A DNA stretch of 32,000 bases from Candidatus Saccharimonadota bacterium (GCF_008189525.1 NZ_CP043314.1:240001-272000); one strand, 5' to 3'. Counted from the stretch's first letter, positions 2,570 to 31,242 are shown. Made by a program: numbers and translations. Notes: generated by a model from the letters alone, not told the origin.

Positions 2570-4438
2570 ATGAAGTTGAAGTCAAGTTTGTTAATTTTAA
2601 GTTCTATTATTTGTTGTGATTTATCTTGTAGAAGTTTAGCTTTGGAAAAAGCAGCTGTAGATTTTCTCAGCAAAGGTGAAAAATATGATGGAGCAATTGG
2701 TTATTGTGAAAAAATAGATTCAGAGTATGTGTTGTGTTTAGAAACTGGTGAATCAGTATCTTCCAAAAATAAAAGCTTTGCAAAGTTGTTTAAAAACAAT
2801 CCTTTTGGTGGTAAGCATTTAGAGCTTTCTCCAATTTGGAGGAGCATAGTTTCAAAAGAAGCAGATCTAGAATTTGTGATTGATTCTGAAATAGGATATG
2901 CTGTTTCTCAGAAACTTGTAGGAAAGTCAGAAAAAGATGCTTCCATAGCTATGCTTGATAAAATGAAATTAATTAGCTCTGATTATTTTAAATCTGGTAT
3001 ATTGAAAGGTTTAGAGAAACATTCTGCAGAGTTATCTGTAGAAGACAAAGATAAATTCGCATCATATCGCACTGAAGTTGATCTGGATGCAAAAAAACTA
3101 CAAGAAGAATATGACTTAGCTGTTAAACTTAAATCTAAATTGGAAGGTGTAGATTCTTTTAGTGATCAGGATAGAGTTTTGTTAAATGAACTTAAAGTAG
3201 AATACGAAAAAGCTAGACAAGGTTATGAAGTTTCTGAAAATTTGGAAAAAATTAAAAAACATGCCACAGGACTATACGAAGGTAAAGTTAATGATTACAA
3301 AAAAGAAATATCTGATTTTAATGAAATTATTGAAAGTAGATTTCCTGATTCAGATTTGGATTTAAGTTTTTTGAAATCAGTTGCAAGTGCAGATTTTGAG
3401 AAGTTTGTAATTAGTAAGTACGCTCAGAATATAAAATCTTTATTAAATATTTTTATACAAAAACTAATTAAGATTCATGATATTAAAAAGGATTTTGAAA
3501 AATTGAGAGGAATTAAAAATTCAGAAACTTTAGAGAAAATCAGAAAAAGTTCAGATTTAGAAGATAACTCTTATATGAATACATTTTGGAATTTAACTAA
3601 TGTACAAAGTTTAACAAAAATATTAGAAAACACTTCATCACTTTCTATTGATTCTGCTTATGATTTGCTAGTAAAACATTCTCAAGTAGAAAATGCTACA
3701 TTGGCTGAGAAATACGCTAAAAAAGATCTATCAATGAATGAGGTTCTAAAAGAAACTAAAGAGCAAATTTTTGAAAGATTTAAAATTTATCTAAATACTA
3801 AATTAATAAGCAATTCTATTTCTAAAAATATTTTCGAGTATTCAGTAAATCAATATAAATCTCTTTTAGGAAAAATAAACAGTGCAATAGAAAAAAATAA
3901 AAAAGAAGCAAGGAAAGAGAAAATTACTGAAGCATTAAGCAATATACAGAAATACCTTGTTATGGAAAATGAAAATATAGTTAAATCAATTGAAAATTTA
4001 AGTGCAGCAGTAAACTCTGTTGATATTTCTCATAGATTAAATGACAGTGATCTAAAATCCATAGAAAACAAGTCTGCGTATGGCAAATTTGCGAATAGTA
4101 GTAGTTCTTTTGGATTCTCTGCAGATAATTTAGGTTTTAATATTTACTCTAAAGAAGGAAAAAAAGATTTAAATATAGACAAGTTTCTTGTTGAGCAGAG
4201 TGTATCTTATTTGCAAGCAAAAAATTCTACAGATTCTTTTGAAGAAGAAATGCATGAAATTTTCAGCAAAATGGAATCTCTTATAGGAAAAGAAAAAGGG
4301 AATGATTACCTAAAAGGGCAAAATAGCTCTTTGAATATGTTAAGCAAGTCACCAGAAGAGTTAGAACAAAACCTAAAAGATGGTATGAGTTCCATAAAAC
4401 AAAAACATATAGATGAAATAAGCAAGCTATCCAAGTAA
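2570..4438 (+). CDS. orphan secreted or surface protein, predicted helical/coiled-coil (622 aa)
   Basis: Long uninterrupted ORF in an AT-rich genome. Hydrophobic N-terminal signal-like segment (MKLKSSLLILSSIICC...), GGAGGA just upstream of the ATG, and a K/E/S/L-rich body with heptad-like stretches. I recognise no catalytic motif. Confidence 0.6.
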   Translation: MKLKSSLLILSSIICCDLSCRSLALEKAAVDFLSKGEKYDGAIGYCEKIDSEYVLCLETGESVSSKNKSFAKLFKNNPFGGKHLELSPIWRSIVSKEADLEFVIDSEIGYAVSQKLVGKSEKDASIAMLDKMKLISSDYFKSGILKGLEKHSAELSVEDKDKFASYRTEVDLDAKKLQEEYDLAVKLKSKLEGVDSFSDQDRVLLNELKVEYEKARQGYEVSENLEKIKKHATGLYEGKVNDYKKEISDFNEIIESRFPDSDLDLSFLKSVASADFEKFVISKYAQNIKSLLNIFIQKLIKIHDIKKDFEKLRGIKNSETLEKIRKSSDLEDNSYMNTFWNLTNVQSLTKILENTSSLSIDSAYDLLVKHSQVENATLAEKYAKKDLSMNEVLKETKEQIFERFKIYLNTKLISNSISKNIFEYSVNQYKSLLGKINSAIEKNKKEARKEKITEALSNIQKYLVMENENIVKSIENLSAAVNSVDISHRLNDSDLKSIENKSAYGKFANSSSSFGFSADNLGFNIYSKEGKKDLNIDKFLVEQSVSYLQAKNSTDSFEEEMHEIFSKMESLIGKEKGNDYLKGQNSSLNMLSKSPEELEQNLKDGMSSIKQKHIDEISKLSK

Positions 4439-5640: not shown

Positions 5641-6285
5641 TTACTGTTTTGCTATTATAGTTTCTCCGGCTACTAAAGTTTGTCCTTTTTTTATACAAAC
5701 TTTCATGCTCTTTGGTATGTATACTTCAGTTCTGCTGCCGAATTTTATCATTCCATAGGTTTGTCCTATTTTTAAGTTTTCCTTCTCATTTACATCACAT
5801 ATGATTCTTCTAGCTACAAAACCAGCTATTTGAGATACTACGCAATCTATAAAGCCATTTATCTTCATAGATAATCTTTCATTAGTCATAAATACTTCTT
5901 TTTTCCAAGCGAAATCGAAACTACCTTCTTTATAAACTATTTTTTCTATATTCCCAGAAATTGGTGCTCTGTTCACATGAACATCTGTAACTCTTAAAAA
6001 AATACCTATTCTTGTGAACTTGTCTTCTTCTAGATCAAAATCAGGGCATGGATGATTATCTATTGCCACCACTATTCCATCAGCAGGGCTTACCACTATT
6101 CCATCTAGTGATGGCACAACTCTATTAGGGTCCCTGAAAAACCATATAGAAAATATATTAAAAGATAAAGCTATGAATCCAGCTATGTAATGGAAATAAA
6201 ACAACCCAATTGATAGAAAAAACGAAACAATTATGATTGGATATCCTTCTGATCTTATTTTATTTAGTAAGTATTTATTTATCAT
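5641..6285 (-). CDS. psd: phosphatidylserine decarboxylase proenzyme, short type
   Basis: FFRDPNR, SPADGIVV, TDVHVNRAPISG and the self-cleavage motif KFGS-RTEV (Gly-Ser site) are present. There are N-terminal TM helices; 214 aa. Confidence 0.85.
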   Translation of the reverse strand: MINKYLLNKIRSEGYPIIIVSFFLSIGLFYFHYIAGFIALSFNIFSIWFFRDPNRVVPSLDGIVVSPADGIVVAIDNHPCPDFDLEEDKFTRIGIFLRVTDVHVNRAPISGNIEKIVYKEGSFDFAWKKEVFMTNERLSMKINGFIDCVVSQIAGFVARRIICDVNEKENLKIGQTYGMIKFGSRTEVYIPKSMKVCIKKGQTLVAGETIIAKQ

Positions 6286-6944
6286 TGAATTTCCTTCAAG
6301 AAGTCATTATGCAATTTTTCTAACTTTGAAACAACAGTTTCTGCAGAAATTAGTTTTTGTGATTCCAAGACATCTAGTTCATGTTCAACAGGTAAATACA
6401 TATTTACATACCCACCTAAGTTTTGATTTGCATATTTTTGTCCGATTTTTAATAAATCTCCAGTTTTTACATAACAGCTCACAGATTGCAAAGAGTTTTG
6501 TGAAACATGCTCTATTATAATCTCTGTCTTTCCAGAAATGACAATTATCAAGCTTTCTCTCTTTTTATAGAAAATGTTTTGCTCTCCGCTTAAGCCTGGA
6601 TTGTAATAAATGTGCTTTACAGTTCCTTCTATAGGGCTCCTGCATACATGAATATCTGTTATTCCATTTTTTATTTCTATTTTGTTCCATTTTTTATCTT
6701 TATATTCATTTTCTGTTACTGAATCTAGGGCTATATCTTTTTTTATGGATTCTACTATTCCATCGCAAGGTGGTAAGCAAGAATCTGGATCTGTAATTAC
6801 TCTCTTTTCATCTCTGAATAGTAGCAAGATAAGTGCTGTGCAGAGTATAGGAGTGAAATACCCAAGAACGAATACTGTGAATAGGAAAATAAAGCATACT
6901 TTTATGGCTTTAAAACCTTGTTTACTTAGTTTTAATCTCAACAC
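6282..6944 (-). CDS. Psd-family paralogue lacking the pyruvoyl-forming serine (GS -> GG)
   Basis: It aligns with the adjacent psd over its full length (LFRDEKRV, PPCDGIVE, TDIHVCRSPIEG, LKIGQKYA). At the cleavage site it reads NLGG-YVNMYLP where psd has KFGS-RTEVYIP. It has a GTG start, overlaps the xseB stop by 1 nt and overlaps the psd start by 4 nt. Confidence 0.7.
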   Translation of the reverse strand: MLRLKLSKQGFKAIKVCFIFLFTVFVLGYFTPILCTALILLLFRDEKRVITDPDSCLPPCDGIVESIKKDIALDSVTENEYKDKKWNKIEIKNGITDIHVCRSPIEGTVKHIYYNPGLSGEQNIFYKKRESLIIVISGKTEIIIEHVSQNSLQSVSCYVKTGDLLKIGQKYANQNLGGYVNMYLPVEHELDVLESQKLISAETVVSKLEKLHNDFLKEIQ

Positions 6945-10356: not shown

Positions 10357-11055
10357 ATGACTTTTATGGCTTTTATATTTTTCTTTGTTTCTAATTTGGT
10401 TTTTTGTGAATATAAAACATCAATACAAGACAATCTAGATAACATTCTATCTGAGTTACAAACTTTATCAGATAACAAAATTATTTCTAAAGAAGAGTTT
10501 ATAAGTCTTAGAAATAGTATGTTGAATGTAAAAAGAAAAGTGAATTTCTTAATGATAAATAGTAAGGTTAAAACTTTAAAGTACGATTCATTTATAGAAA
10601 CAATTACAGGATTTTTACCAACGCCAAGTGCATCTCATAATATGGAAGAATATGAATACAAAATGTATTTAAAAGAAGCTATAAAGGCTATGAGCAAAAG
10701 AGACTTTGAGTCAGCTAAGCGTAAGTTTGACTATCTAAGAGTTAACCAAACATATGACTTAGCTATATGCTACTATTGGATTGGTTTTATTAATTTTAAT
10801 CAAAATAATTTAGATGATGCAATTATGAATTTTGGTATTTTTTGTAAAATTATGGATCAAAATAATAAATCTGAATTTTATTTGAAAAACAAATCAAAGA
10901 TATACAGAGCATTGATGAGCATGATGAAAATCTATTATAAAAAGAATGAATTTGTAAAAGCAAAATCACTTCTTAAAAAAATAAAGCATGATCATTTAGA
11001 TGAGATAAAAAGTGTTTCAGATAAAGCTATAGTAAATTCTGTTTCTTTAGCGTAG
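10357..11055 (+). CDS. exported TPR-like protein, possibly YbgF/CpoB-like
   Basis: Signal-like N-terminus (MTFMAFIFFFVSNLVFC), a helical middle segment, and a C-terminal half with TPR-like A/Y/F spacing (YKMYLKEAIKAMSKRDFESAKRKFDYL ... YYWIGFINFNQNNLDDAIMNF ... ALMSMMKIYYKKNEFVKAKSLLKKI). The family assignment is weak. Confidence 0.4.
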   Translation: MTFMAFIFFFVSNLVFCEYKTSIQDNLDNILSELQTLSDNKIISKEEFISLRNSMLNVKRKVNFLMINSKVKTLKYDSFIETITGFLPTPSASHNMEEYEYKMYLKEAIKAMSKRDFESAKRKFDYLRVNQTYDLAICYYWIGFINFNQNNLDDAIMNFGIFCKIMDQNNKSEFYLKNKSKIYRALMSMMKIYYKKNEFVKAKSLLKKIKHDHLDEIKSVSDKAIVNSVSLA

Positions 11056-11333: not shown

Positions 11334-11363
11334 TTGAAATCTTATGGTGTGTTTTTGTAATAC
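11334..11363 (+). promoter_or_regulatory. candidate sigma70-type promoter for the head-gene cluster
   Basis: TTGAAA (11334-11339), an 18-nt spacer, then TAATAC (11358-11363), about 70 nt upstream of the portal ATG. AT-rich DNA gives many chance matches. Confidence 0.3.
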
Positions 11364-11376
11364 TAGTAAATGTAGG

Positions 11377-11390
11377 GTGCAAGTTTGCAC
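11377..11390 (+). promoter_or_regulatory. GC-containing inverted repeat in the portal 5' leader (operator or RNA hairpin candidate)
   Basis: GTGCAA-GT-TTGCAC has perfect 6-bp arms. It can be extended imperfectly to AGGGTGCA/TGCAC(T)CCT. It stands out in a 379-bp otherwise AT-rich spacer, between the candidate -10 and the ATG at 11435. Confidence 0.35.
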
Positions 11391-11434
11391 TCCTATAAAA
11401 AAACTTCACAAAAGGATAAAAATGGGAATTACTT

Positions 11435-12493
11435 ATGAACTTAATTCATAGAGTTTTTCCGTATCTACAGAGAAAAGATAAAAACACTAAATGTGATTTT
11501 ATACCAAACCTAATGAATGTTAATTCATTTTCTGGTGGTTCTATGTGTAAACAAGATTTTAAAAATATAATCGTTTATAGATGTATTTCTCTTATATCAA
11601 GAAACATAGCTAATATTAAATGCTTCTTGTATGATTCGGAAAATAATAAAGTTAGCAACAATTATGTATCCAATTTGCTTATAAAGCCAAATGGGTACGA
11701 AACTTGGTTCGAGTTTGTAGAAAATTTGGTAACAAATCTTTGTTTGCATGGAAATGCTTATACTTATTTGGAGTCAGGTGAACATGGATATGAAATGTAT
11801 AACTTGAATCCAGAAAATGTAGAGATACTGAAAAATAAATATGGTCATGCTGAATCTTATAAAATCAAGGAAGAAAAAAATAAATATAACGTTTATAATT
11901 CATCTGAAATAATGCATATAAAGTTCAATAATCCTTATTGTCCTTGGGTTGGCTTGAGCCCAATGGGGTGCATAAAAGAATCTGTAAGGTTTTATGATAG
12001 TGTTACAAAACATAATCAATCAATTTTAGATAATGGTGGAAGACCTTCTGGAGCTTTTATATTGAAAAATAAAGTGGATGACTATGAGTTTGAAAAGCTA
12101 AAAAATAGCATAGCTTTGTCACACAAAGGAAAAGGAAACGCAGGCTCAATAATTTTACTGCAGTCTGATGTGGATTGGAAAGATTTAAGTATATCTTCTA
12201 AAGATATGGATTTTAATGTAGGAAAAAATATTGCTGCTAGAGAAATTTGTCAGGCTTTCGGAGTTCCTCCGGTAATGTTAGGTTTGCAAGATGCATCCTT
12301 TTCTAACTACAAAGAAGCTAGGTTGCATTTCTGGGAAGATACTTTGCTTCCTATGGCAAATAAAATATTACAAAAGATAAATGATCTGGTTTGGGTAAAC
12401 TTATCTGAAAAAGATTCTAGTTTAGAGAAGTTTTCTATAAAACCTGACTTCTCTTCTGTGCCAGCTTTGTCTGCAAAAAGCGAAAATGCATAA
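11435..12493 (+). CDS. phage portal protein, HK97 family (RcGTA g3-like)
   Basis: LHGNAYTYLE and CQAFGVPPVMLGLQDASFSNYKEARLHFWEDTLLPMANKI are the hallmark HK97-family portal blocks. 352 aa. Confidence 0.9.
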   Translation: MNLIHRVFPYLQRKDKNTKCDFIPNLMNVNSFSGGSMCKQDFKNIIVYRCISLISRNIANIKCFLYDSENNKVSNNYVSNLLIKPNGYETWFEFVENLVTNLCLHGNAYTYLESGEHGYEMYNLNPENVEILKNKYGHAESYKIKEEKNKYNVYNSSEIMHIKFNNPYCPWVGLSPMGCIKESVRFYDSVTKHNQSILDNGGRPSGAFILKNKVDDYEFEKLKNSIALSHKGKGNAGSIILLQSDVDWKDLSISSKDMDFNVGKNIAAREICQAFGVPPVMLGLQDASFSNYKEARLHFWEDTLLPMANKILQKINDLVWVNLSEKDSSLEKFSIKPDFSSVPALSAKSENA

Positions 12494-12629
12494 AATATGC
12501 TTAATGTATCACATATCCAATTAATATTATGAATATTATTTAAAACAATTAAACGAACAAAAAATAGGAGGTTTTATAATTAAATTATTAACTTATTCTA
12601 AAAAAGGTGGAGCCTTAGAAATAGAAGAA

Positions 12630-13214
12630 ATGGATTCCAATTTTGACAACATATCCGAAGAATTCTCAAAAATATGGGACTTTGTTTTATATCAGAAGAA
12701 AAATTTTAATGACATGGAGAAGAAATTGTCTGGGTTATTTGCAAAAATTGGTTCTGTCGTAGATCAGAAAATGGATAAGACAAATGAAAATGTAGATTCA
12801 GGAAATGAAAGAGATACAGGTGTAAATCTAATTGTAAGAGAGTCATCATTATCACAAGGCATGAAAAAAGATTTTGAAGAAGAGGATGATTACTATATTG
12901 AAAAGCAAAGTGATGAAATTGTAATTTATTCAAAGTCAGAGAATTCAAAGTGCTCAATAAATTTAGATAGGCTTTATGGTGAAGCTTTTAATATGAAGTT
13001 TGATGAAAACAAGCCTAAATCTTTCACGGGGCACAGGGATAAAATAGAAATAAAAAAATTGGTAAGTGAGTCAGAATTAGAGTCTTTGAGAAGATCTCTA
13101 GAATCTGGAGGCGTAGAAAATAAAGAAGAAAGTGCCTGTGTGTATATATTTGATGGAAAAGCATATTTCTATTATAAAGAAGAAAAAGAATTGAGTTATG
13201 AGAGCTTTGAGTAG
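12630..13214 (+). CDS. acidic hypothetical protein inserted between portal and protease
   Basis: 194-aa ORF, D/E/K/S-rich, with no motif I recognise. Its 3' end overlaps the protease start by 17 nt. The frame is open upstream to 12525, and a strong AGGAGG (12566-12571) is followed by ATA/ATT at 12576/12579, so the true start may be non-canonical and earlier. Confidence 0.55.
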   Translation: MDSNFDNISEEFSKIWDFVLYQKKNFNDMEKKLSGLFAKIGSVVDQKMDKTNENVDSGNERDTGVNLIVRESSLSQGMKKDFEEEDDYYIEKQSDEIVIYSKSENSKCSINLDRLYGEAFNMKFDENKPKSFTGHRDKIEIKKLVSESELESLRRSLESGGVENKEESACVYIFDGKAYFYYKEEKELSYESFE

Positions 13215-13620
13215 TGGTCTTAATGAAAATGAATTTATTGTGCAAGGGTATGCAAGTACATTTAATTTCAAAGATGGTCAGAGTGATATAATAAAACCAG
13301 GTGCTTTTGATAGTAAGAAAATAGATATTCCAAAAATAAAAATGCTTTGGAAACATGATATTATGAAGCCAATAGGGTATTGGTACGAAATGTTTGAAGA
13401 TGAGTGTGGGTTGTTCGTAAAAGGTAAAGTGTTTAGAAATCTATCTTTTGGAGAGCAAATTTGTAATTTTATAAAACACTCTTTTGTAAAAGGTTTGTCA
13501 ATAGGATATATACCAACTTCATTTCAAACATTTAAAAATTGTAGAATAATATCTAAGTTAAAGCTTTATGAAATATCAGTAGTTACAAATCCTGCTAATG
13601 AAAAAGCAAAAATAATCTGA
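13198..13620 (+). CDS. HK97-family prohead (maturation) serine protease (RcGTA g4-like)
   Basis: GYASTFNFKDGQSDIIKPGAFD, KMLWKHD (catalytic His context), KGLSIGY (catalytic Ser context) and a C-terminal EISVVTNPANEKAKI. 140 aa. Confidence 0.85.
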   Translation: MRALSSGLNENEFIVQGYASTFNFKDGQSDIIKPGAFDSKKIDIPKIKMLWKHDIMKPIGYWYEMFEDECGLFVKGKVFRNLSFGEQICNFIKHSFVKGLSIGYIPTSFQTFKNCRIISKLKLYEISVVTNPANEKAKII

Positions 13621-13667
13621 GTTAATCTAAATAAATTATGTTAATTGTTCTTTCTTGAAAGGGAAAA

Positions 13668-14780
13668 ATGAATATATTAAACAACAAAAACAGTCTAAAA
13701 AAGAATGTAAATACCTTTGGTGGTATGAGTTTTGATGGTGGAAGGTTTGAAGGTTCTAATTTGGAAAAACAATTAGATTCTGAGAAGCAACCTAAATCTG
13801 AAGAAATTCCTTCTAATATAGAGAAAAAATCTTATGGAGCTCCTCAAACTTGGGGATCCTCTGAAACTGAGTCAGTATCAAGTATAGCAAAGTATATTGC
13901 AGGTAATTTTTCTGATATAGAAACTAAATCAATGTCTAATTCATTTTTTAATAGTATAAGTACAAATAGAAATGGACATTATGTGCCTGATGAGTCAGGG
14001 GAAATTCTTCTAGAGAATGATTATTACTTCTCTCCAATAAGATCTAGAGCTAGAACTATATTTTCAGATAGAACTACATGTACTGTTAACAAATTTAACT
14101 CACCTGAAGTTACAGAAACTGATCCTAGCACGCCTTACCAAATTGGAACTAAAAAGCTAGAGCTATCAAAAGAAACTCTCAGTATGCATGCGTTGCAAAT
14201 TTGTATACCTGTTTCTCAAAATTCAGATGAAATTCATTCGATTGTGGATTTCGAAGAAGCAGTTAATAGAAAAATGTGCACTGAACTTTCTGAAAGAGAA
14301 AGAAACTTATTTATATCTGGAGTTGATGGAAAAATAGATAGCATTATACCTTCAGAATCTCAAACTATGACAGGTAAGCTAGATGATAACTATATTTCTC
14401 TTAGAAAAATGCTTACAAAGCTGGAGCTGAAATATCATAAGAATGCAGTTTGGTTTATGACACCAGAAACATATTATGAAAAAGTTCTAGGCCTTTCTGA
14501 TGCAAATAAGCGTCCTATATTGAATATGGATCAAATAAGCTCTGACTGTAATTCAATATTCGGAAAAGAAGTTGTTTTTGTAGAGGAGTTAAGAGGTTCA
14601 GGATGTGATATCATTCTTGCTGACTTAGAATCTGGTTATCTGATCTGCGAAAATAAAAATATTTTCTATCAAGAGGATCCATTTAGTGAGAAACCTATGG
14701 TACTTCATTACATGAGAAAATATATGTGTTCAAAAGTAATTGATGAAAAAGCTTTTGTAGGTTTTAAGGAATCTGCATAA
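13668..14780 (+). CDS. phage major capsid protein, HK97 family (RcGTA g5-like)
   Basis: The C-terminal block ADLESGYLICENKNIFYQEDPFSEKPMVLHYMRKYMCSKVIDEKAFVGFK follows the GTA/HK97 capsid pattern (GDF-x-GY-x-I-x-[DE]-[RK]...[RQ]-[DE]-[DP]-[YF]-[ST]-x-KP-x-V-x-[FH]-Y...A-x-x-x-[LF]-K). The N-terminal roughly 100 aa are S/E/K-rich and delta-domain-like. The gene sits immediately after the protease. Confidence 0.88.
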   Translation: MNILNNKNSLKKNVNTFGGMSFDGGRFEGSNLEKQLDSEKQPKSEEIPSNIEKKSYGAPQTWGSSETESVSSIAKYIAGNFSDIETKSMSNSFFNSISTNRNGHYVPDESGEILLENDYYFSPIRSRARTIFSDRTTCTVNKFNSPEVTETDPSTPYQIGTKKLELSKETLSMHALQICIPVSQNSDEIHSIVDFEEAVNRKMCTELSERERNLFISGVDGKIDSIIPSESQTMTGKLDDNYISLRKMLTKLELKYHKNAVWFMTPETYYEKVLGLSDANKRPILNMDQISSDCNSIFGKEVVFVEELRGSGCDIILADLESGYLICENKNIFYQEDPFSEKPMVLHYMRKYMCSKVIDEKAFVGFKESA

Positions 14781-15304
14781 TGCTTTTAGATTTACATTGT
14801 GAGAAAAAGTATGATTCGATTCCTATAAACATACAGTTTGTAAGAAAATGCTTTAACGTGCATGAAGACTTGGAAGATTCTTATATTGAAAAGTTATTGA
14901 AAATAGCTTGTGAAAAACTAGAATCTATAACTGGATCTTCAGTTATTGAAAAAGATTGGGTTTTGACAGCAAAAAGGGTTGAGATCAAGTTGTTTAAAGG
15001 TCCAGTGAGAAATGTTTCTAGTATATCTGTAAAGACTAGAAATGGAACATACAAAACAATACCAGTTGAAGATTATTATCAGAAAATTAATTTAGGAAAT
15101 AGAATTATAATCTTAAGTGAAAAGTATATGGATAAAATAATTAAAGTTAATTATTCTGCTGGGTACAGGGTAAATGAGCTGCCTGGAGATTTAGAAAGTT
15201 ATATTTTGAGAATGTTCGGAGATTTATACAATGGGAATATGGAAAGTAAAGCTGAAGAATATAAAGTTAGTAAGTCATATACAATGAACGAAATAAGAAT
15301 ATAG
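14780..15304 (+). CDS. gp6-like head-tail connector protein (RcGTA g6-like)
   Basis: The pattern FVRKCFNVHEDLEDSYIEKLLKIACEKLESITGSSVIEKDW...IKLFKGPVRNVSSISVKTRNG...IPVEDYY matches the family layout (D-D-x-x-I-x-x-L-I-x-A-A...E-x-x-T-G-x-x-[LI]...W...L-x-x-x-P-V-x-S-V-x-S-V). Its start overlaps the capsid stop (TAATG). Confidence 0.7.
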   Translation: MLLDLHCEKKYDSIPINIQFVRKCFNVHEDLEDSYIEKLLKIACEKLESITGSSVIEKDWVLTAKRVEIKLFKGPVRNVSSISVKTRNGTYKTIPVEDYYQKINLGNRIIILSEKYMDKIIKVNYSAGYRVNELPGDLESYILRMFGDLYNGNMESKAEEYKVSKSYTMNEIRI

Positions 15305-15306
15305 CA

Positions 15307-15705
15307 ATGATATTTAGGAATAATATACCTATGAAGAATATACTGAATGGATCTGTTCCATCAATGCATCATAGAATTTCTGTAATGTCTATTAAAACTT
15401 CTACTGAAAATAAGCTTCTGTCTAATGAATTTTGTATGACTGGAGAAAAGTTTTGGGGATATATACACTCTTCATCAATAGTGAAAAAGAAAAATAATGT
15501 TTTTGATAACTTCTTTGTAATAATATCTAATATTTCAGAAAAATGTTTGATAAGCAGTGGTTTTAATTGGAAAAATAGGTACTTTCAAAGGTATTCTAGG
15601 ATTCAACCGATTAATCAAAATGTTGGATATGTGTACGTAAAAGATATAACTGAAAATGGTTTAGAGCAGGTTAGCTTTAATGAACAGTACTTTTCTTTTC
15701 CTTGA
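15307..15705 (+). CDS. probable head-tail adaptor / head-closure protein (RcGTA g7 position)
   Basis: It starts 2 nt after the connector stop and has the right size (132 aa). The HHRISVMS...FWGYIH pattern loosely resembles the family's R-I-x-[IL]...[VF]-W-A motif. The call rests mostly on position. Confidence 0.5.
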   Translation: MIFRNNIPMKNILNGSVPSMHHRISVMSIKTSTENKLLSNEFCMTGEKFWGYIHSSSIVKKKNNVFDNFFVIISNISEKCLISSGFNWKNRYFQRYSRIQPINQNVGYVYVKDITENGLEQVSFNEQYFSFP

Positions 15706-15777
15706 TTCTTATGCTCTGAACTCTGAAAAACAAAAAGTTCATAAACAATAATATAAAAAATCAAAGTGGGTGAAAAA

Positions 15778-16104
15778 ATGTATGAATTACTAGAAGACGT
15801 TTGGAAAGAAATTAGAAAAGAGATTGGTAATGTTTATTTAGGTGATAAGGTTTGCGAGTTTGATAAGAGTTGCTCTGTCTCAATAAAAAGTTTTGTGAAA
15901 AATTTAGATTATATAAATGTGAAAATATCATGCTGCTTTAATTTTAAGAAAAAAGACAGTGAATATTATGAACAGATGATTAACTTGGAAAGTAATATAC
16001 ACAACCTAAAAAATAATATTTTGATAAAAGATTTAAAAACTAAAATAGATTTAGAAAAGTCTAAAGTGGATATATTTATTATTAAAGAAATTAAACAAAG
16101 CTAG
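15778..16104 (+). CDS. small hypothetical protein in the RcGTA g8 (DUF3168-like) position
   Basis: 108 aa from the ATG at 15778, which has GGTG about 7 nt upstream; the ORF track starts at a GTG at 15766. The call is positional only, with no convincing motif. Confidence 0.35.
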   Translation: MYELLEDVWKEIRKEIGNVYLGDKVCEFDKSCSVSIKSFVKNLDYINVKISCCFNFKKKDSEYYEQMINLESNIHNLKNNILIKDLKTKIDLEKSKVDIFIIKEIKQS

Positions 16105-16215
16105 TTTCAAAAAACTCAATAAATCAAATAATTAAAAACTAAAATAAATTACAGCAAATAATATTTAATTTAAAGTAATATTTGTTAATTTATCAAAAAA
16201 GAAAGAGAGTAGTGT

Positions 16216-16674
16216 TTGATCGAAATAAAGGATCTGTTAAAAGATCGTAGTGAAATTATAAGCGGAGATTGCTCATTATTATTGAACTCTAATAATATTC
16301 GTAATTTAGAAGGAGCTTTAATGCATGATTCAAATTCATGCTCAAACAAGTACCAGATTAAAATAAGTGGTGAATCAGATCTTCCAGAGATTTTCCTAAA
16401 TGGTGAGCTTCTAATAAAATCTCCTATAAGATTTTTTCAATTCGTAAATAAAGAAGAAAAAATAATGTTTAATAGAAAACCTGCTGAAGGATCTATACTG
16501 TTTTCAAAGAGAGATCAAATTACAAAAACAAATGTTCTTGTAGAAGAGGACTATCGTCCTGGGTGCGATGGTAAGGTAAATTACAAGCCACTATTTAATG
16601 TTTTTGTTAAAAGCATATCTTGTGACTTTAAAAATTTAGAAACAAGATGGGCAGTTGTTTTGGATGAGAAATGA
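16216..16674 (+). CDS. hypothetical protein (152 aa), unassigned
   Basis: TTG start preceded by AGAGAG. It is separated from the previous gene by a 111-bp AT-rich spacer, and its stop overlaps the next start (ATGA). No tail-tube or other family motif is recognisable. Confidence 0.45.
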   Translation: MIEIKDLLKDRSEIISGDCSLLLNSNNIRNLEGALMHDSNSCSNKYQIKISGESDLPEIFLNGELLIKSPIRFFQFVNKEEKIMFNRKPAEGSILFSKRDQITKTNVLVEEDYRPGCDGKVNYKPLFNVFVKSISCDFKNLETRWAVVLDEK

Positions 16675-18197
16675 ATTGTTTTTGTGTTTATCTGACATCT
16701 AATAGTGACTTAAGTAAGTTTAATTCCAGTGATGTGAGGAAAATCGATGATACTACTAAGGTCAAAATTGTTCAATCCAAGTTTGATTATGTAGAAGCAG
16801 AAATATATGTTTCTTCATTTATATCGGATTTAAATAAATATCCATTTTTAATTATAACGAATGATCATGGTGTAATGTTTTTTGGAAGCTATGAATATAT
16901 AAATAAACAAAATAATTCTTATAAAATATCATTCAAATCAAAAGCTTCTAGTGAAAAGAAACAAAAATGTTTGGATAAAGAGTTTTTAAATAATGGATTA
17001 AGTAATGCTTTGGATCCTAAAGGAAATGTAGTAAATAGTCTAGTATATTCAGATTCGTTGATGGGATGTGAAAGCATATTCGATGACAAGGAAGATTCTT
17101 ATTCAATAGACAGTATGTCCATTCTTAGTAGAAATGATTTTTTAAAGAAAGAATATAATTCAGTAGAATCTGAAGAAAGTTTCTCTGTTACTTTTTGTTT
17201 TTCTTGGGATGATCACATTTTCAGGCAGAGTGATGTTTTCGAAGAAGTGTATAAGAATTTTAAAGAGAATGAGCTGTCTAAATGGCCTCAAAAATTTTCT
17301 AAACATGGTCAGTATACAATTTCAAACTCTTTTATAAAAAAAGAATATGGAAATGTTTATGGTGCTTTGGTTTTGGATTGGATGGAATTAATAAAGAGAA
17401 GAGAAAAATGGTGCTTTAATATATTTGGAGCAAATGTATCCAAAGACTTAAACTTGAATATTGATCTTAACAAGGTTTTTTCTGGTTGTGATGAATGGAA
17501 AGAGAAGCAGTTTTATAAGAAAAATGACTCTGTTTCTTATGAAAAGTCAATTTTTATTTGTGCTGTAGATCATTTTTCAGGATTAGTTTTTGATTTGGAA
17601 TATTGGATAGAATCAGATAAAAAACCAGAAATTTTACAAAAGAATAAAGATAATATATTTGATTCAGAAGCTGGAAAATTGCTTTTATATCAAATCAAAA
17701 ATATGCTTTTTGCTTACACTAGAGCGTATCAATATGATTATATATTGGAAGTGAAAATAAACTTAACAAATTCTTTGGATTTATGCTTTGTACAGCTTAT
17801 GGATAAAGTGAGATTTAAATCTGTGGAAGATGGAAAAATATATACAGGTGTGGTTTTTGAGTATGAAAAGACAATTTCTGATAAAGAGTCTATTTTGTTT
17901 TTAAAGATAAAAAGTTTAACAAAAGTAAAAAGCTTTGATTCAGATATTATTTATTATTTTAGAGATGAGTACTGTAAATCCTATTGCTTTGAATATGAGC
18001 ATAAAAGATTGAAAGACCTTTATTTTAAAAGAATTTTTGATAAATCAAGTATAAAGTCTCATTCTGATCTTTTGAAGAATTTAAATATGGTTATAGATTT
18101 TATAGAAGATGAAGAAAAGTTTCTGGGAATAAAAATTAATTCAGTGCAAAAAAAATTACCTGACTTGTGCTTGAATTATGAAGTAAGGAGAAAATAA
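16671..18197 (+). CDS. hypothetical protein (508 aa), unassigned, aromatic- and Cys-rich
   Basis: A 1.5-kb uninterrupted ORF in AT-rich DNA is very unlikely by chance. It is coupled to the upstream ORF by an ATGA overlap. I can assign no family. Confidence 0.65.
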   Translation: MNCFCVYLTSNSDLSKFNSSDVRKIDDTTKVKIVQSKFDYVEAEIYVSSFISDLNKYPFLIITNDHGVMFFGSYEYINKQNNSYKISFKSKASSEKKQKCLDKEFLNNGLSNALDPKGNVVNSLVYSDSLMGCESIFDDKEDSYSIDSMSILSRNDFLKKEYNSVESEESFSVTFCFSWDDHIFRQSDVFEEVYKNFKENELSKWPQKFSKHGQYTISNSFIKKEYGNVYGALVLDWMELIKRREKWCFNIFGANVSKDLNLNIDLNKVFSGCDEWKEKQFYKKNDSVSYEKSIFICAVDHFSGLVFDLEYWIESDKKPEILQKNKDNIFDSEAGKLLLYQIKNMLFAYTRAYQYDYILEVKINLTNSLDLCFVQLMDKVRFKSVEDGKIYTGVVFEYEKTISDKESILFLKIKSLTKVKSFDSDIIYYFRDEYCKSYCFEYEHKRLKDLYFKRIFDKSSIKSHSDLLKNLNMVIDFIEDEEKFLGIKINSVQKKLPDLCLNYEVRRK

Positions 18198-18199
18198 AA

Positions 18200-18319
18200 A
18201 TGCATGTTTTTTTAGATTTAATTTATAATGAAAGTTTTGAGTTGGCTAGTATAGCTAACCATAAGCAAAAAGAAGTTTTTATAAGCTTTATTCAAGAAAA
18301 TATAGGGAGGTTATCATAA
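18200..18319 (+). CDS. possible 39-aa coupled ORF, or the 5' part of a frame-disrupted gene
   Basis: ATG at 18200 lies 2 nt after the preceding stop, with AGGAG 8 nt upstream. It translates as MHVFLDLIYNESFELASIANHKQKEVFISFIQENIGRLS. It is not in the ORF track because it is under 60 aa. Confidence 0.3.
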   Translation: MHVFLDLIYNESFELASIANHKQKEVFISFIQENIGRLS

Positions 18320-18513
18320 AAATTCTTGTTGTTCTTTTTAAAATCTGTAAGGGTTCATTATTTTACATATTTAATTTTGTTAGAAAAAGATACAGCTTTA
18401 AAATCCTATTTAATAAGCTTATTAATATTTTTTCTAACTTTAAAAGTAATAAAGGTTATGATCTTATAAACACATTAGAATCAGAACATAAAATAGACTT
18501 TTTAGTAAAAAAA

Positions 18514-18807
18514 ATGCTATCAAGAAACTTTAAAGATGAAGTTCATAGAAAAGACAGAAAAGACTCTAGGTTAAGAGATTGTTCTATATATAAGGACAAG
18601 CCAAACAAAAGAGCGAATGCTATGTTTTTATTAGCCTTTTTTGGACTGTTTTCTTGTCTTTTATTGCTTGGATTAATGCCTAATATAACATCAGAAGTTA
18701 TATGTATTATTTCTGCTTCAGCAGGTATATTTGGATCATGCTTGAAAGATGCCTATGTATTTGAATTTGGATCAAGAGAGGATAGAAAGAGTCTAGATAA
18801 ATTCTAG
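18514..18807 (+). CDS. small two-TM membrane protein (holin-like topology); the reading frame is open 83 codons upstream of the ATG
   Basis: It has a basic N-terminus, two hydrophobic helices (AMFLLAFFGLFSCLLLLGLM and VICIISASAGIFGSCL) and a charged C-terminus. The same frame has no stop from 18265 to 18513. Confidence 0.5.
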   Translation: MLSRNFKDEVHRKDRKDSRLRDCSIYKDKPNKRANAMFLLAFFGLFSCLLLLGLMPNITSEVICIISASAGIFGSCLKDAYVFEFGSREDRKSLDKF

Positions 18808-30016: not shown

Positions 30017-30571
30017 TTATTTTATAATTTTATATTTAAGTATATTTCCAGGAGGGAAGTTTCTCCATACAGTTTCAATTCTCTTGCATGTCATGTCGAA
30101 GTTTTTATACTTAAATGGTGAAAATGGAGTGTAAGTAAGCTGTAGATATGTTGCTCCTGTTTGTAACATGATTTTTTTATAGGTTTCAATAATTTCTAAT
30201 GATTTTTTCTTTCCCAAAGACAGTAAAGGCACAGTAGATAATATGTATTTAATATCTTTTATGGTTTTTAAATCTAATATATCGTATATATCGCAAATAT
30301 CTTTGTTTATGAAAGTTGACTCAGGGAATCTTTTTCTCAAATCATTACAGAACTCTTCTTGGATTTCGAAAGATATTAATTTAGATTTGTTCTCCATCTT
30401 GTTGTAGACGTGTTCTGTTATTGTTCCGGTCCCAGCTCCAACTTCTAATATTGTTCCAGAGTTCAAATCCATATTTTTTATAAAAGCTTTTGATAAATGG
30501 CTAGAGCTTGGAATAACTGATCCTGTAAGTTTGGGGTTTTTTATATATTGTTTAAAAAATACTTTTTTCAT
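30017..30571 (-). CDS. pmtA: phospholipid N-methyltransferase, Sinorhizobium PmtA type (COG3963-like class I SAM methyltransferase)
   Basis: The N-terminal FFKQYIKNPKLTGSVIPSSSHLSKAF matches the family's F-x-x-W-[IL]-x-x-P-x-x-[VT]-G-[SA]-[IV]-x-P-[ST]-S block. The SAM motif I is ILEVGAGTGTIT. 184 aa. Confidence 0.75.
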   Translation of the reverse strand: MKKVFFKQYIKNPKLTGSVIPSSSHLSKAFIKNMDLNSGTILEVGAGTGTITEHVYNKMENKSKLISFEIQEEFCNDLRKRFPESTFINKDICDIYDILDLKTIKDIKYILSTVPLLSLGKKKSLEIIETYKKIMLQTGATYLQLTYTPFSPFKYKNFDMTCKRIETVWRNFPPGNILKYKIIK

Positions 30572-31242
30572 TTTGTTTTTCCTTCTTTAATCTCTTTCTT
30601 TTGACTATTTTCTTCAGAAAAATCCATTCCTTTTACTATAGATGAAAAGGCTTCAGAGCAATTTTTATAAGAATAATGATTTACATGTACAGTAGGAAAA
30701 GATTTTATTTTTTTGCTTAGAAAATCAACAACACCTCTGTTCTTAAACACATTAGAATAAAAAGATGTATAGGAGAAATGCAACATAGGGCATAAATTAG
30801 ATTCCATTATATCAGAACATTGGTTAAGTATTTTATTTCTTTCTGCTTTATTTATTAATAAAAATGGGATAGAGGATATTATTAATCTAACTCTACTCAT
30901 TTCCTCTGGAGATATTATTTCAGAAAGATCTGCAGCATTTCCTTGTATTATTTTTACATTCTCGAATTTTTTTCGCAGAACTTTGCAAAAACTATCATTA
31001 ATTTCTATACATATTGATTGTGCAGAGCTATATGCTTTATTGTTTATATATTTTGTCAATGACCCAGATCCTCCGCCTATTTCAAGAATTATGTCATTTT
31101 GAGATAGGTTTTGTGAAAAATGTAAGATATGTTTACCTGCTTTTTTTGGGATCTCTCTAAAGGTCCCGGTTTTTATTGGATTTTTTAGCCAATTCAAAAA
31201 GAACATCATCTTAGTCATAAGGGTTATTCTATCATAGTTCAA
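30568..31242 (-). CDS. second, more divergent PmtA-family SAM methyltransferase (tandem paralogue)
   Basis: FLNWLKNPIKTGTFREIPKKAGKHIL plus ILEIGGGSGSLT show the same architecture as the downstream gene. There is a 4-nt stop/start overlap. The C-terminal tail is K/E-rich. Confidence 0.6.
   Translation of the reverse strand: MNYDRITLMTKMMFFLNWLKNPIKTGTFREIPKKAGKHILHFSQNLSQNDIILEIGGGSGSLTKYINNKAYSSAQSICIEINDSFCKVLRKKFENVKIIQGNAADLSEIISPEEMSRVRLIISSIPFLLINKAERNKILNQCSDIMESNLCPMLHFSYTSFYSNVFKNRGVVDFLSKKIKSFPTVHVNHYSYKNCSEAFSSIVKGMDFSEENSQKKEIKEGKTK

Follow-up and report, generated by a model that had tools for sequence, protein, structure and literature searches.

Why do endosymbiont genomes of about 600 kb retain 7 kb of phage-derived capsid genes? 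Recombination that slows Muller's ratchet, host manipulation and storage are among the candidate reasons. We take it up here for a 32,000-nucleotide window of bacterial DNA (NZ_CP043314.1:240001-272000; positions are counted from the first letter of this window), whose capsid and portal proteins match those of Candidatus Nesciobacter abundans at 100% identity. This is a Holosporaceae endosymbiont of the diplonemid Diplonema japonicum with a genome of 616 kb (616,088 bp). We consider it probable that the locus is a vertically inherited, selection-maintained and reduced gene transfer agent (GTA) operon of the type found in Rhodobacter capsulatus (RcGTA), comprising ten genes between ybgF and lysC. 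On the best-supported reading, the operon would encode head and neck proteins, its own holin homologue and a pair of distal proteins specific to the lineage, of which one has a glycan-binding module.

The cluster and its main interpretation are already published for the same genome. George et al. (2022, Genome Biol Evol 14:evac099, PMC9254644), in a paper on GTA clusters that covers exactly the N. abundans cluster, describe capsid and portal gene clusters in N. abundans, Cytomitobacter primus and C. indipagum, each located downstream of ybgF, with a single cluster per genome and without detected tail homologues in the Holosporaceae endosymbionts. They report ratios of non-synonymous to synonymous substitution (dN/dS) below 1 in Rickettsiales and Holosporaceae pairs, a sign of purifying selection, and GTA transcripts in C. 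primus, C. indipagum and Sneabacter. According to the same paper, the gene for the large terminase lies apart from the cluster, elsewhere in the genome, which answers the main question of a preliminary description of the window, whether packaging genes lie elsewhere. The finding and main interpretation of that description were thus known already, since the same cluster in the same genome had been described, and it adds nothing beyond the 2022 paper. The paper calls the genes beyond the adaptor 'unknown' and makes no mention of a holin. What we add to it is a TeaA-type holin homologue with a probably mis-annotated start, a CBM5/12 module in the gene that we call orf508, accessory families that extend across the Holosporales, a conserved upstream element, a measure of capsid and portal divergence, and ten-gene synteny in three Cytomitobacter genomes.

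Head and neck genes

To place the genes of the window among their relatives, we used three comparison loci, L001 from C. indipagum and L005 and L006 from two Cytomitobacter-like 620-kb genomes, together with protein families built by iterated hidden Markov model (HMM) search over 80 portal-centred loci that were kept from a scan of GTDB genomes and do not include N. abundans. Comparison families for RcGTA g3.5 to g15 were built from 27-72 loci; when the families of orf132, orf112, orf152 and orf194 were set against them by hhalign, the sole result was a weak alignment of orf132 to g7.

All ten genes lie on the plus strand. The first, separated from the upstream gene by a 379-bp spacer, encodes a portal of RcGTA g3 type (11435-12493; PF04860, E 3e-67), whose best PDB match is the RcGTA portal Rcc01684 at 1e-35, with the next phage portal at 2e-13. 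It is followed, in the g3.5 position, by orf194 (12630-13214), an acidic and fast-evolving open reading frame (ORF) that overlaps the protease start by 17 nt. An HMM built from Cytomitobacter sequences only ranks orf194 first of the 96 ORFs in the window, yet at an E value of just 0.026; its positional counterparts in L001, L005 and L006 measure 138-158 aa, and searches of Pfam, PHROG and PDB profiles returned no match. The prohead serine protease of family S78 (g4; 13198-13620) matches PF04586 (E 2e-26) over profile positions 10-152 of 165 and phrog_80 at E 9e-33, and keeps 29 of the 32 positions that are conserved in at least 85% of family members, including H53 and S101. The HK97-fold major capsid protein (g5; 13668-14780) is strongly divergent: it matches PF05065 at E 5e-21 and the RcGTA capsid protein Rcc01687 at just 1.4e-4.

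The capsid gene overlaps the next gene at a TAATG (14778-14782). This gene encodes a gp6-like head-tail adaptor (g6; 14780-15304; phrog_442, E 5e-6), which joins a 63-member iterated-HMM family that includes g6 of Rhodobacterales, Caulobacterales and Hyphomicrobiales clusters; the family profile reaches E 0.077 over positions 17-154 against the RcGTA adaptor Rcc01688. A gap of 2 nt separates the adaptor from orf132 (15307-15705), which occupies the stopper (g7) position, shares 28-31% identity with its Cytomitobacter counterparts and shows a weak but colinear similarity to the g7 family by hhalign (E 0.06, 16-115 against 19-125). The tail-terminator (g8) position is taken by orf112 (15766-16104), the top-ranked of the 96 window ORFs with its Cytomitobacter-only HMM (E 7e-4), for which hhalign found no similarity to g8. 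In L005 (13626-14303), a single fused ORF of 225 aa corresponds to both orf132 and orf112. Less reduced Holosporales, among them Paracaedibacter, Finniella and several metagenome-assembled genomes (MAGs), have clear g7 and g8 genes, with hhalign probabilities of 99.4% and 99.7%.

The preliminary description had placed a co-oriented portal, protease, capsid and adaptor here, and the matches to PF04860, PF04586, PF05065 and phrog_442 bear it out. The motifs that it quoted, FGVPPVMLG...SNYKEA in the portal, SGYLI... in the capsid and the His and Ser contexts in the protease, occur in the translations, and the TAATG overlap, the 2-nt gap and the 379-bp spacer are as it gave them. The genes of its five-gene head set are real, and the set misses orf194, which sits between portal and protease.

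Synteny and constraint across genera

The order of these genes is the same in another genus. Loci L001, L005 and L006 share the order ybgF-like gene, portal, an ORF that we call orfX, protease, capsid, adaptor, two small ORFs, an ORF of ~152 aa, one of ~500-510 aa, one of ~165 aa and lysC, so that ten genes are syntenic with those of Nesciobacter, and all ten are open in the four genomes. The gene that marks the upstream border is a ybgF/CpoB-like tetratricopeptide repeat (TPR) gene (10357-11055, plus strand), assigned by a weak TIGR02795 match and named tetratricopeptide repeat protein by NCBI; it holds the same upstream position in the three comparison loci at 22-26% identity. The shared position between ybgF and lysC places the insertion before the split of Nesciobacter and Cytomitobacter, in keeping with the long residence that had been proposed for the cluster, and rules out a recent prophage.

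Protein identities between Nesciobacter and Cytomitobacter fall into a graded series: 42-47% for the protease, 43-46% for the portal (42-45% in a separate comparison), 40-45% for the last gene (orf164 family), 31-35% for the adaptor, 31-33% for the capsid, 28-31% for orf132, 25-29% for orf152, 26-27% for orf508, 20-24% for orf112 and 21-23% for orf194. Among flanking genes the values are 41-44% for lysC, 44-46% for dapE and 32-34% for yidC, so that portal, protease and holin homologue match the level of lysC and dapE and exceed that of yidC.

That the locus might be a fragment of an ordinary, recently integrated prophage is suggested by its phage-type genes, namely portal, protease, capsid, adaptor and holin. 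This explanation is effectively refuted by the cross-genus synteny, and we regard it as extremely improbable: the ybgF-lysC position is identical in a different genus despite protein identities of only 22-46%, the GC content cannot be told from that of the flanks, and the portal is far closer to that of RcGTA than to any phage portal of solved structure. Family scans of every ORF in the 32-kb window gave no match to terminase, integrase or tape-measure families, as the preliminary description had noted, and neither repressor nor replication genes were found there. Flanking att-like repeats were also looked for around the cluster, and none was found. The assignment of the cluster to the RcGTA type rather than to a prophage, made earlier on its gene content, stands.

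The reading frames themselves point to selection. In this DNA the stop probability is 0.095 per codon, which puts the chance of each ORF staying open at 1e-5 to 1e-22, and across 500 shuffles no stop-free run was longer than 138 codons. That ~2,300 codons have been kept open over such divergence in 27%-GC DNA is strong evidence of purifying selection, and it agrees with the earlier proposal that the genes are kept under selection, all ORFs being open although dS exceeds 1.

In Candidatus Bodocaedibacter vickermanii (L002), ~3.4 kb with six unannotated ORFs of 57-177 aa (11685-15076) separate the protease from the capsid gene, and the locus ends with a DDE transposase gene.

Lineage-specific genes downstream of the neck

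The preliminary description took the module to be head-only. This does not hold, since five further conserved genes lie beyond the adaptor, the last three of which are orf152 (16216-16674), orf508 (16671-18197), whose start overlaps the orf152 stop at an ATGA, and the gene for a TeaA-type holin homologue. By iterated HMM search, orf152 belongs to a Holosporales-wide family found in 24 Holosporales loci, always 3' of the neck genes g6-g8, and orf508 to a Holosporales-specific family of 480-640-aa proteins found in 23 loci; the orf164 family of the last gene occurs in 13. The orf508 and orf164 families always lie 3' of portal, protease, capsid and g6 (with g7 and g8 where present). Because the three families are always tied to GTA genes, the downstream genes appear to belong to the system.

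No match to orf132, orf112 or orf152 was found in Pfam, PHROG or PDB profiles, no PHROG with an assigned function matched the families of orf132, orf112, orf152 or orf508, and a homologue search with a concatenated query of orf194, orf132, orf112, orf152 and orf508 returned no matches. Searched exhaustively with HMMER, 1.84 billion representative proteins contained only three full-length relatives of orf508. When Paracaedibacter members of the orf508, orf152 and ~290-aa families were compared with 50,697 phage genomes by tblastn, no match was obtained.

Within orf508, approximately residues 268-315 (17472-17615, plus strand) show a predicted CBM5/12 carbohydrate-binding module. The evidence comes from three sides: the orf508 family profile matches chitin-binding domains of the PDB at 9e-6 to 3e-5, 6 of 16 members of the family match PF02839 (best E 1e-6), and the corresponding part of an AlphaFold2 (AF2) model superposes on chitin-binding domains at ~2 Å. 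Foldseek returned no hit at E <= 0.001 for the model of orf508, of which the carbohydrate-binding module alone superposes convincingly. Hits of this model to baseplate, hub and tube proteins (Mu gp44, diffocin, Milano and monocin) were scattered and not significant, and we do not rely on them.

In two of the less reduced loci, L003 (Paracaedibacter symbiosus) and L004 (from a MAG of the Holosporaceae), the cluster is interrupted by an oppositely oriented EamA transporter gene (15258-16265 and 14896-15777, respectively), with the head, neck and orf152 genes in one half and the orf508-type gene, the ~290-aa gene, a Hydrolase_2 gene and the holin gene in the other.

A TeaA-type holin homologue at the end of the operon

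The last gene is annotated publicly as a 97-aa hypothetical protein that begins at an ATG at 18514 (QEK39050.1). Upstream of this ATG, 66-67 in-frame codons are free of stops, which has a chance probability of ~1e-3, and the N-terminus that they encode aligns with the N-termini of the 164-167-aa Cytomitobacter orthologues. By direct reading, a Shine-Dalgarno-like AGGGAGG (18304-18310, plus strand) lies 5 nt 5' of an ATA at 18316 and 2 nt 5' of an ATC at 18313. The true start is probably one of these two codons, giving a protein of ~163 aa (18316-18807), and QEK39050.1 is probably mis-annotated.

With this extension, the protein shows Kyte-Doolittle hydrophobic segments at approximately 1-21, 100-124 and 127-145, which coincide with the three of TeaA from phage ICP1; the first is present only if translation starts at 18313 or 18316. 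Seven of ten members of the orf164 family match phrog_1544 (best E 1e-23), and the family aligns with TeaA over its full length by hhalign (97.8%, E 8e-13, 158 columns). The Paracaedibacter member has tblastn matches in 157 phage genomes, including the ICP1 gene labelled 'teaA: holin' (30% identity, 92% of the query, E 2e-12), and the window protein by itself reaches TeaA by BLASTP at E 0.003. Holin activity of TeaA has been shown experimentally by Hays and Seed (2020, eLife 9:e53200, PMC7182436), who assign it by remote homology to PF11351, 'GTA_holin_3TM'; in our hmmscan searches, PF11351 gave no hit for the window protein, for its family members or for TeaA itself. Taken together, the alignments and hydropathy show the last gene to encode a predicted three-segment holin homologue of TeaA type, with a holin function assigned by homology.

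The company that the gene keeps differs between lineages. Less reduced Holosporales have the order orf508-type gene, a gene of ~215-310 aa, a peptidoglycan hydrolase of the Hydrolase_2 type (phrog_938 endolysin, 3e-19) and the orf164-type gene, with Hydrolase_2 present in L003, L004, L010, L013, L016, L027 and L034. Likewise in Polaromonas phage Tiera and Vibrio phage 1.023.O, as in these Holosporales, the homologue directly follows a peptidoglycan hydrolase, of three types in all. In this respect the Nesciobacter and Cytomitobacter copies differ from TeaA, having neither an adjacent endolysin nor an antiholin.

A conserved element upstream of the portal

The 140 bp 5' of the portal start show 72% mean column identity among Nesciobacter and the three Cytomitobacter genomes. 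The four-genome alignment reveals a promoter-like element (11334-11363, plus strand) consisting of TTGAAA (11334-11339), an 18-nt spacer and TAATAC (11358-11363). In the four genomes, TTGAAA is invariant and the spacing conserved, with a second box that reads TAATAC, TACAAC or TAAAAC. It is followed by a hairpin, TGTAGGRTGCA...TCCTA (TGTAGGGTGCA...TCCTA; 11371-11397, plus strand), recognised by its conservation and RNA fold (-14.3 kcal/mol, z = -2.1), in which the outer stem GUAGG/CCUAC is kept in the four genomes and the interior varies. The upstream motif occurs once per locus. Scans for sigma-70 promoters and terminators gave no enrichment over shuffles, and Rfam gave no meaningful match to the element, with one hit far below the gathering score. 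From its position and conservation, we infer that the element could be a dedicated promoter with a leader element.

Missing parts and alternative readings

A number of observations weigh against a functional RcGTA-type operon and are gathered here, beginning with the parts that are missing. No terminase was found in the window beside the portal, where the canonical RcGTA order has g2. TerL, the large terminase, has family members beside the portal in 40 loci, all canonical save one (L008), and none was found within 10 kb of the portal in any Holosporales-type locus examined. In the 80-locus set, the g9-g15 families are confined to canonical clusters; homologues of the tube, tape measure, distal tail, hub and megatron proteins were not detected even by profile-profile comparison, and hhalign found no match between the orf152, orf508 and orf164 families and g9-g15. 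For orf132, orf112, orf152 and orf508, roles are guessed from position, and structure prediction failed for both proteins modelled: the AF2 model of orf508, from a 4-sequence alignment, is poor (pLDDT 40), with the carbohydrate-binding module as its sole confident part, and that of orf152, from a single sequence, is unusable (pLDDT 30). There is no adjacent endolysin gene in the window or in Cytomitobacter, both having lost the ~290-aa gene and the peptidoglycan hydrolase. Lastly, transmission electron microscopy of >850 endosymbiont cells saw no particles (PMC9254644).

The one non-canonical locus with a TerL-family ORF, L008, comes from a MAG (Alphaproteobacteria bacterium 43-37) labelled only Alphaproteobacteria; among the genome contigs scanned, its portal is the closest to that of the window after those of Cytomitobacter, at 39% identity.

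Substitution rates and protein divergence belong to the same list. By the Nei-Gojobori method, dS was 0.8-3.3 overall with dN/dS ratios of 0.1-0.6, and between the two closest Cytomitobacter genomes dS was 0.9-2.2 with ratios of 0.13-0.35, or 0.6 for orfX, values that are only indicative because dS is saturated. Comparison with relatives, which the preliminary description had suggested, yields ten-gene synteny free of stops and indicative dN/dS values. As a measure of divergence, we took the share retained of those family positions that are conserved in at least 80% of members. For the protease, this is 85% in Nesciobacter and 82-85% in Cytomitobacter, against a family median of 95%; for the portal, 60% and 71-72%, against 95%; and for the capsid, 35% and 41-46%, against 97%. 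The Nesciobacter portal in addition lacks the conserved last ~28 residues, ending before a C-terminal motif, SFLTxNEKRxxLGY, that is present in 13 of 13 relatives including Cytomitobacter, and its stop is followed by 136 bp of non-coding DNA (in the region 12400-12630). The earlier view that the genes are full-length with hallmark blocks preserved therefore holds only in part, given the truncated portal and the divergent capsid.

Some of this divergence is confined to Nesciobacter, and we asked how far it fits a relic in early decay, in which an operon that was once functional, and perhaps still is in Cytomitobacter, has not yet accumulated stops. The portal truncation is specific to Nesciobacter, and so is the loss of the holin ATG, the full-length frame having no ATG, GTG or TTG start. 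Nesciobacter is lowest in conserved-position retention for portal and capsid, and its intergenic gaps are wider (136, 60, 111 and 118 bp) than in Cytomitobacter, where the genes are near-contiguous. To these may be added the loss of the peptidoglycan hydrolase and the ~290-aa gene, and the fact that the taxa listed as having GTA transcripts do not include Nesciobacter (PMC9254644). We nevertheless think decay improbable. The ten ORFs remain open over ~2,300 codons despite the 9.5% stop probability per codon, and the frame 5' of the holin ATG, with a GGGAGG ahead of it, has no stop either; Nesciobacter, too, keeps the promoter-like element and the hairpin; and a 616-kb genome with a strong deletion bias would be expected to shed 7 kb of useless DNA.

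The capsid raises a different alternative. Other Holosporales retain 86-97% of its conserved positions, which places the remodelling of the capsid in the ancestor of the diplonemid symbionts. Between L005 and L006, the capsid proteins are 64% identical, as conserved as lysC and dapE (63-67%); judged by these identities, the capsid, once remodelled, is now conserved like a housekeeping gene. Remodelling followed by housekeeping-like constraint could point to a changed function rather than to gene transfer between bacteria. The operon could accordingly be a repurposed capsid system, producing tail-less particles or compartments that have ceased to move DNA from one bacterium to another. Their role might instead be to carry a cargo, of protein or of another kind, to interact with the diplonemid host or to serve as a storage shell. 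The undetected DNA-delivery tail (canonical g9-g15) and the glycan-binding CBM5/12 module of orf508 fit such a system, as does the point, raised by George et al., that gene exchange is of little use when endosymbiont populations are small and mostly clonal (PMC9254644). Against it, the portal, the maturation protease and, according to the literature, the terminase are retained, a set that is sensible mainly for DNA packaging through a portal vertex; encapsulin-type compartments have neither portals nor proteases, a cargo gene or targeting peptide is nowhere apparent, and the absence of particles in the microscopy counts here as well. We hold repurposing to be unlikely, with a chance still worth bearing in mind.

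Similar odds, well short of even, attach to a more specific form of changed function, a self-releasing and essentially tail-less particle of an undescribed kind. Such a particle would combine an RcGTA-derived head and neck with a Holosporales-specific cap and an endolysin-free release by the TeaA-type holin, and would serve a new purpose, for example delivery to or interaction with the eukaryotic host; orf508 may then be an analogue of a Dit or hub protein with a glycan-binding insertion.

A working model and related systems

Under the probable explanation, a reduced RcGTA-type operon, we envisage the following sequence of events. In some of the cells, the operon would be transcribed from a promoter of its own. 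The capsid protein would assemble on the portal, the protease would mature the head, and the unlinked terminase would fill it, after which the adaptor and the proteins in the neck positions would close the head. We speculate that a short distal or receptor-binding structure, made of orf152 and orf508, takes the place of the RcGTA tube, tape measure and baseplate, and that the holin permeabilises the producing cell and so releases the particles.

The system resembles RcGTA in having the portal, S78 protease, HK97-fold capsid and adaptor in the same order, and in being chromosomal, integrase-free and vertically inherited. It differs in that TerS and TerL are not adjacent in Nesciobacter, in that g9 (tube), g10 and g11 (chaperone and tape measure) and g12-g15 (distal tail, hub, peptidase and megatron) are not detectable, with lineage-specific proteins present instead, and in that the holin gene is part of the structural operon, where RcGTA has it at a separate locus. 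RcGTA is released by a holin of the three-transmembrane (3-TM) type. Its structure is reported by Bardy et al. 2020 (PDB 6TBA and related entries).

Reduced GTA gene sets occur in other obligate intracellular alphaproteobacteria, where the head genes are likewise best conserved (PMC9254644). Encapsulins offer a further parallel, with an HK97-fold shell protein encoded in a cellular genome without tail genes. Encapsulin operons, however, pair the shell with a cargo protein that bears a targeting peptide, whereas Nesciobacter has a portal, protease and adaptor. We considered an encapsulin nanocompartment as the identity of the locus and rejected it on the presence of those three genes, no cargo candidate being evident.

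Our additions to the published account render the 'unknown' downstream genes testable, by providing a holin homologue whose activity can be assayed as that of TeaA was and a glycan-binding module whose ligand can be sought. The Holosporales-wide families, with at least 20 members, now permit proper structure prediction, and the conserved promoter-like and leader element offers a way to the regulator and to the conditions under which the operon is expressed.

Surrounding genes

The flanks of the operon consist of housekeeping genes, upstream ychF, pssA, two copies of psd, xseB, pduO, yidC and the ybgF-like TPR gene, and downstream lysC, lipB, dapE, ftsZ, efp and serC. GC content varies between 0.22 and 0.32 along the window and is the same in the cluster as in these neighbours, as had been described.

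Three further features of the flanks were observed. On the minus strand at 5641-6944, the two psd copies are tandem phosphatidylserine decarboxylase paralogues, one far lower-scoring than the other, and the pair is kept in all Cytomitobacter loci. Between ychF and pssA lies an ORF of 622 aa (2570-4438) with no match in Pfam or NCBIfam; at this position, L005 has no gene and L006 has an unannotated ORF of 1056 aa 5' of pssA. On the minus strand at 30017-31242, two adjacent ORFs of 184 and 224 aa, overlapping by 4 nt, both match the N-terminal part of RrnaAD/methyltransferase profiles.

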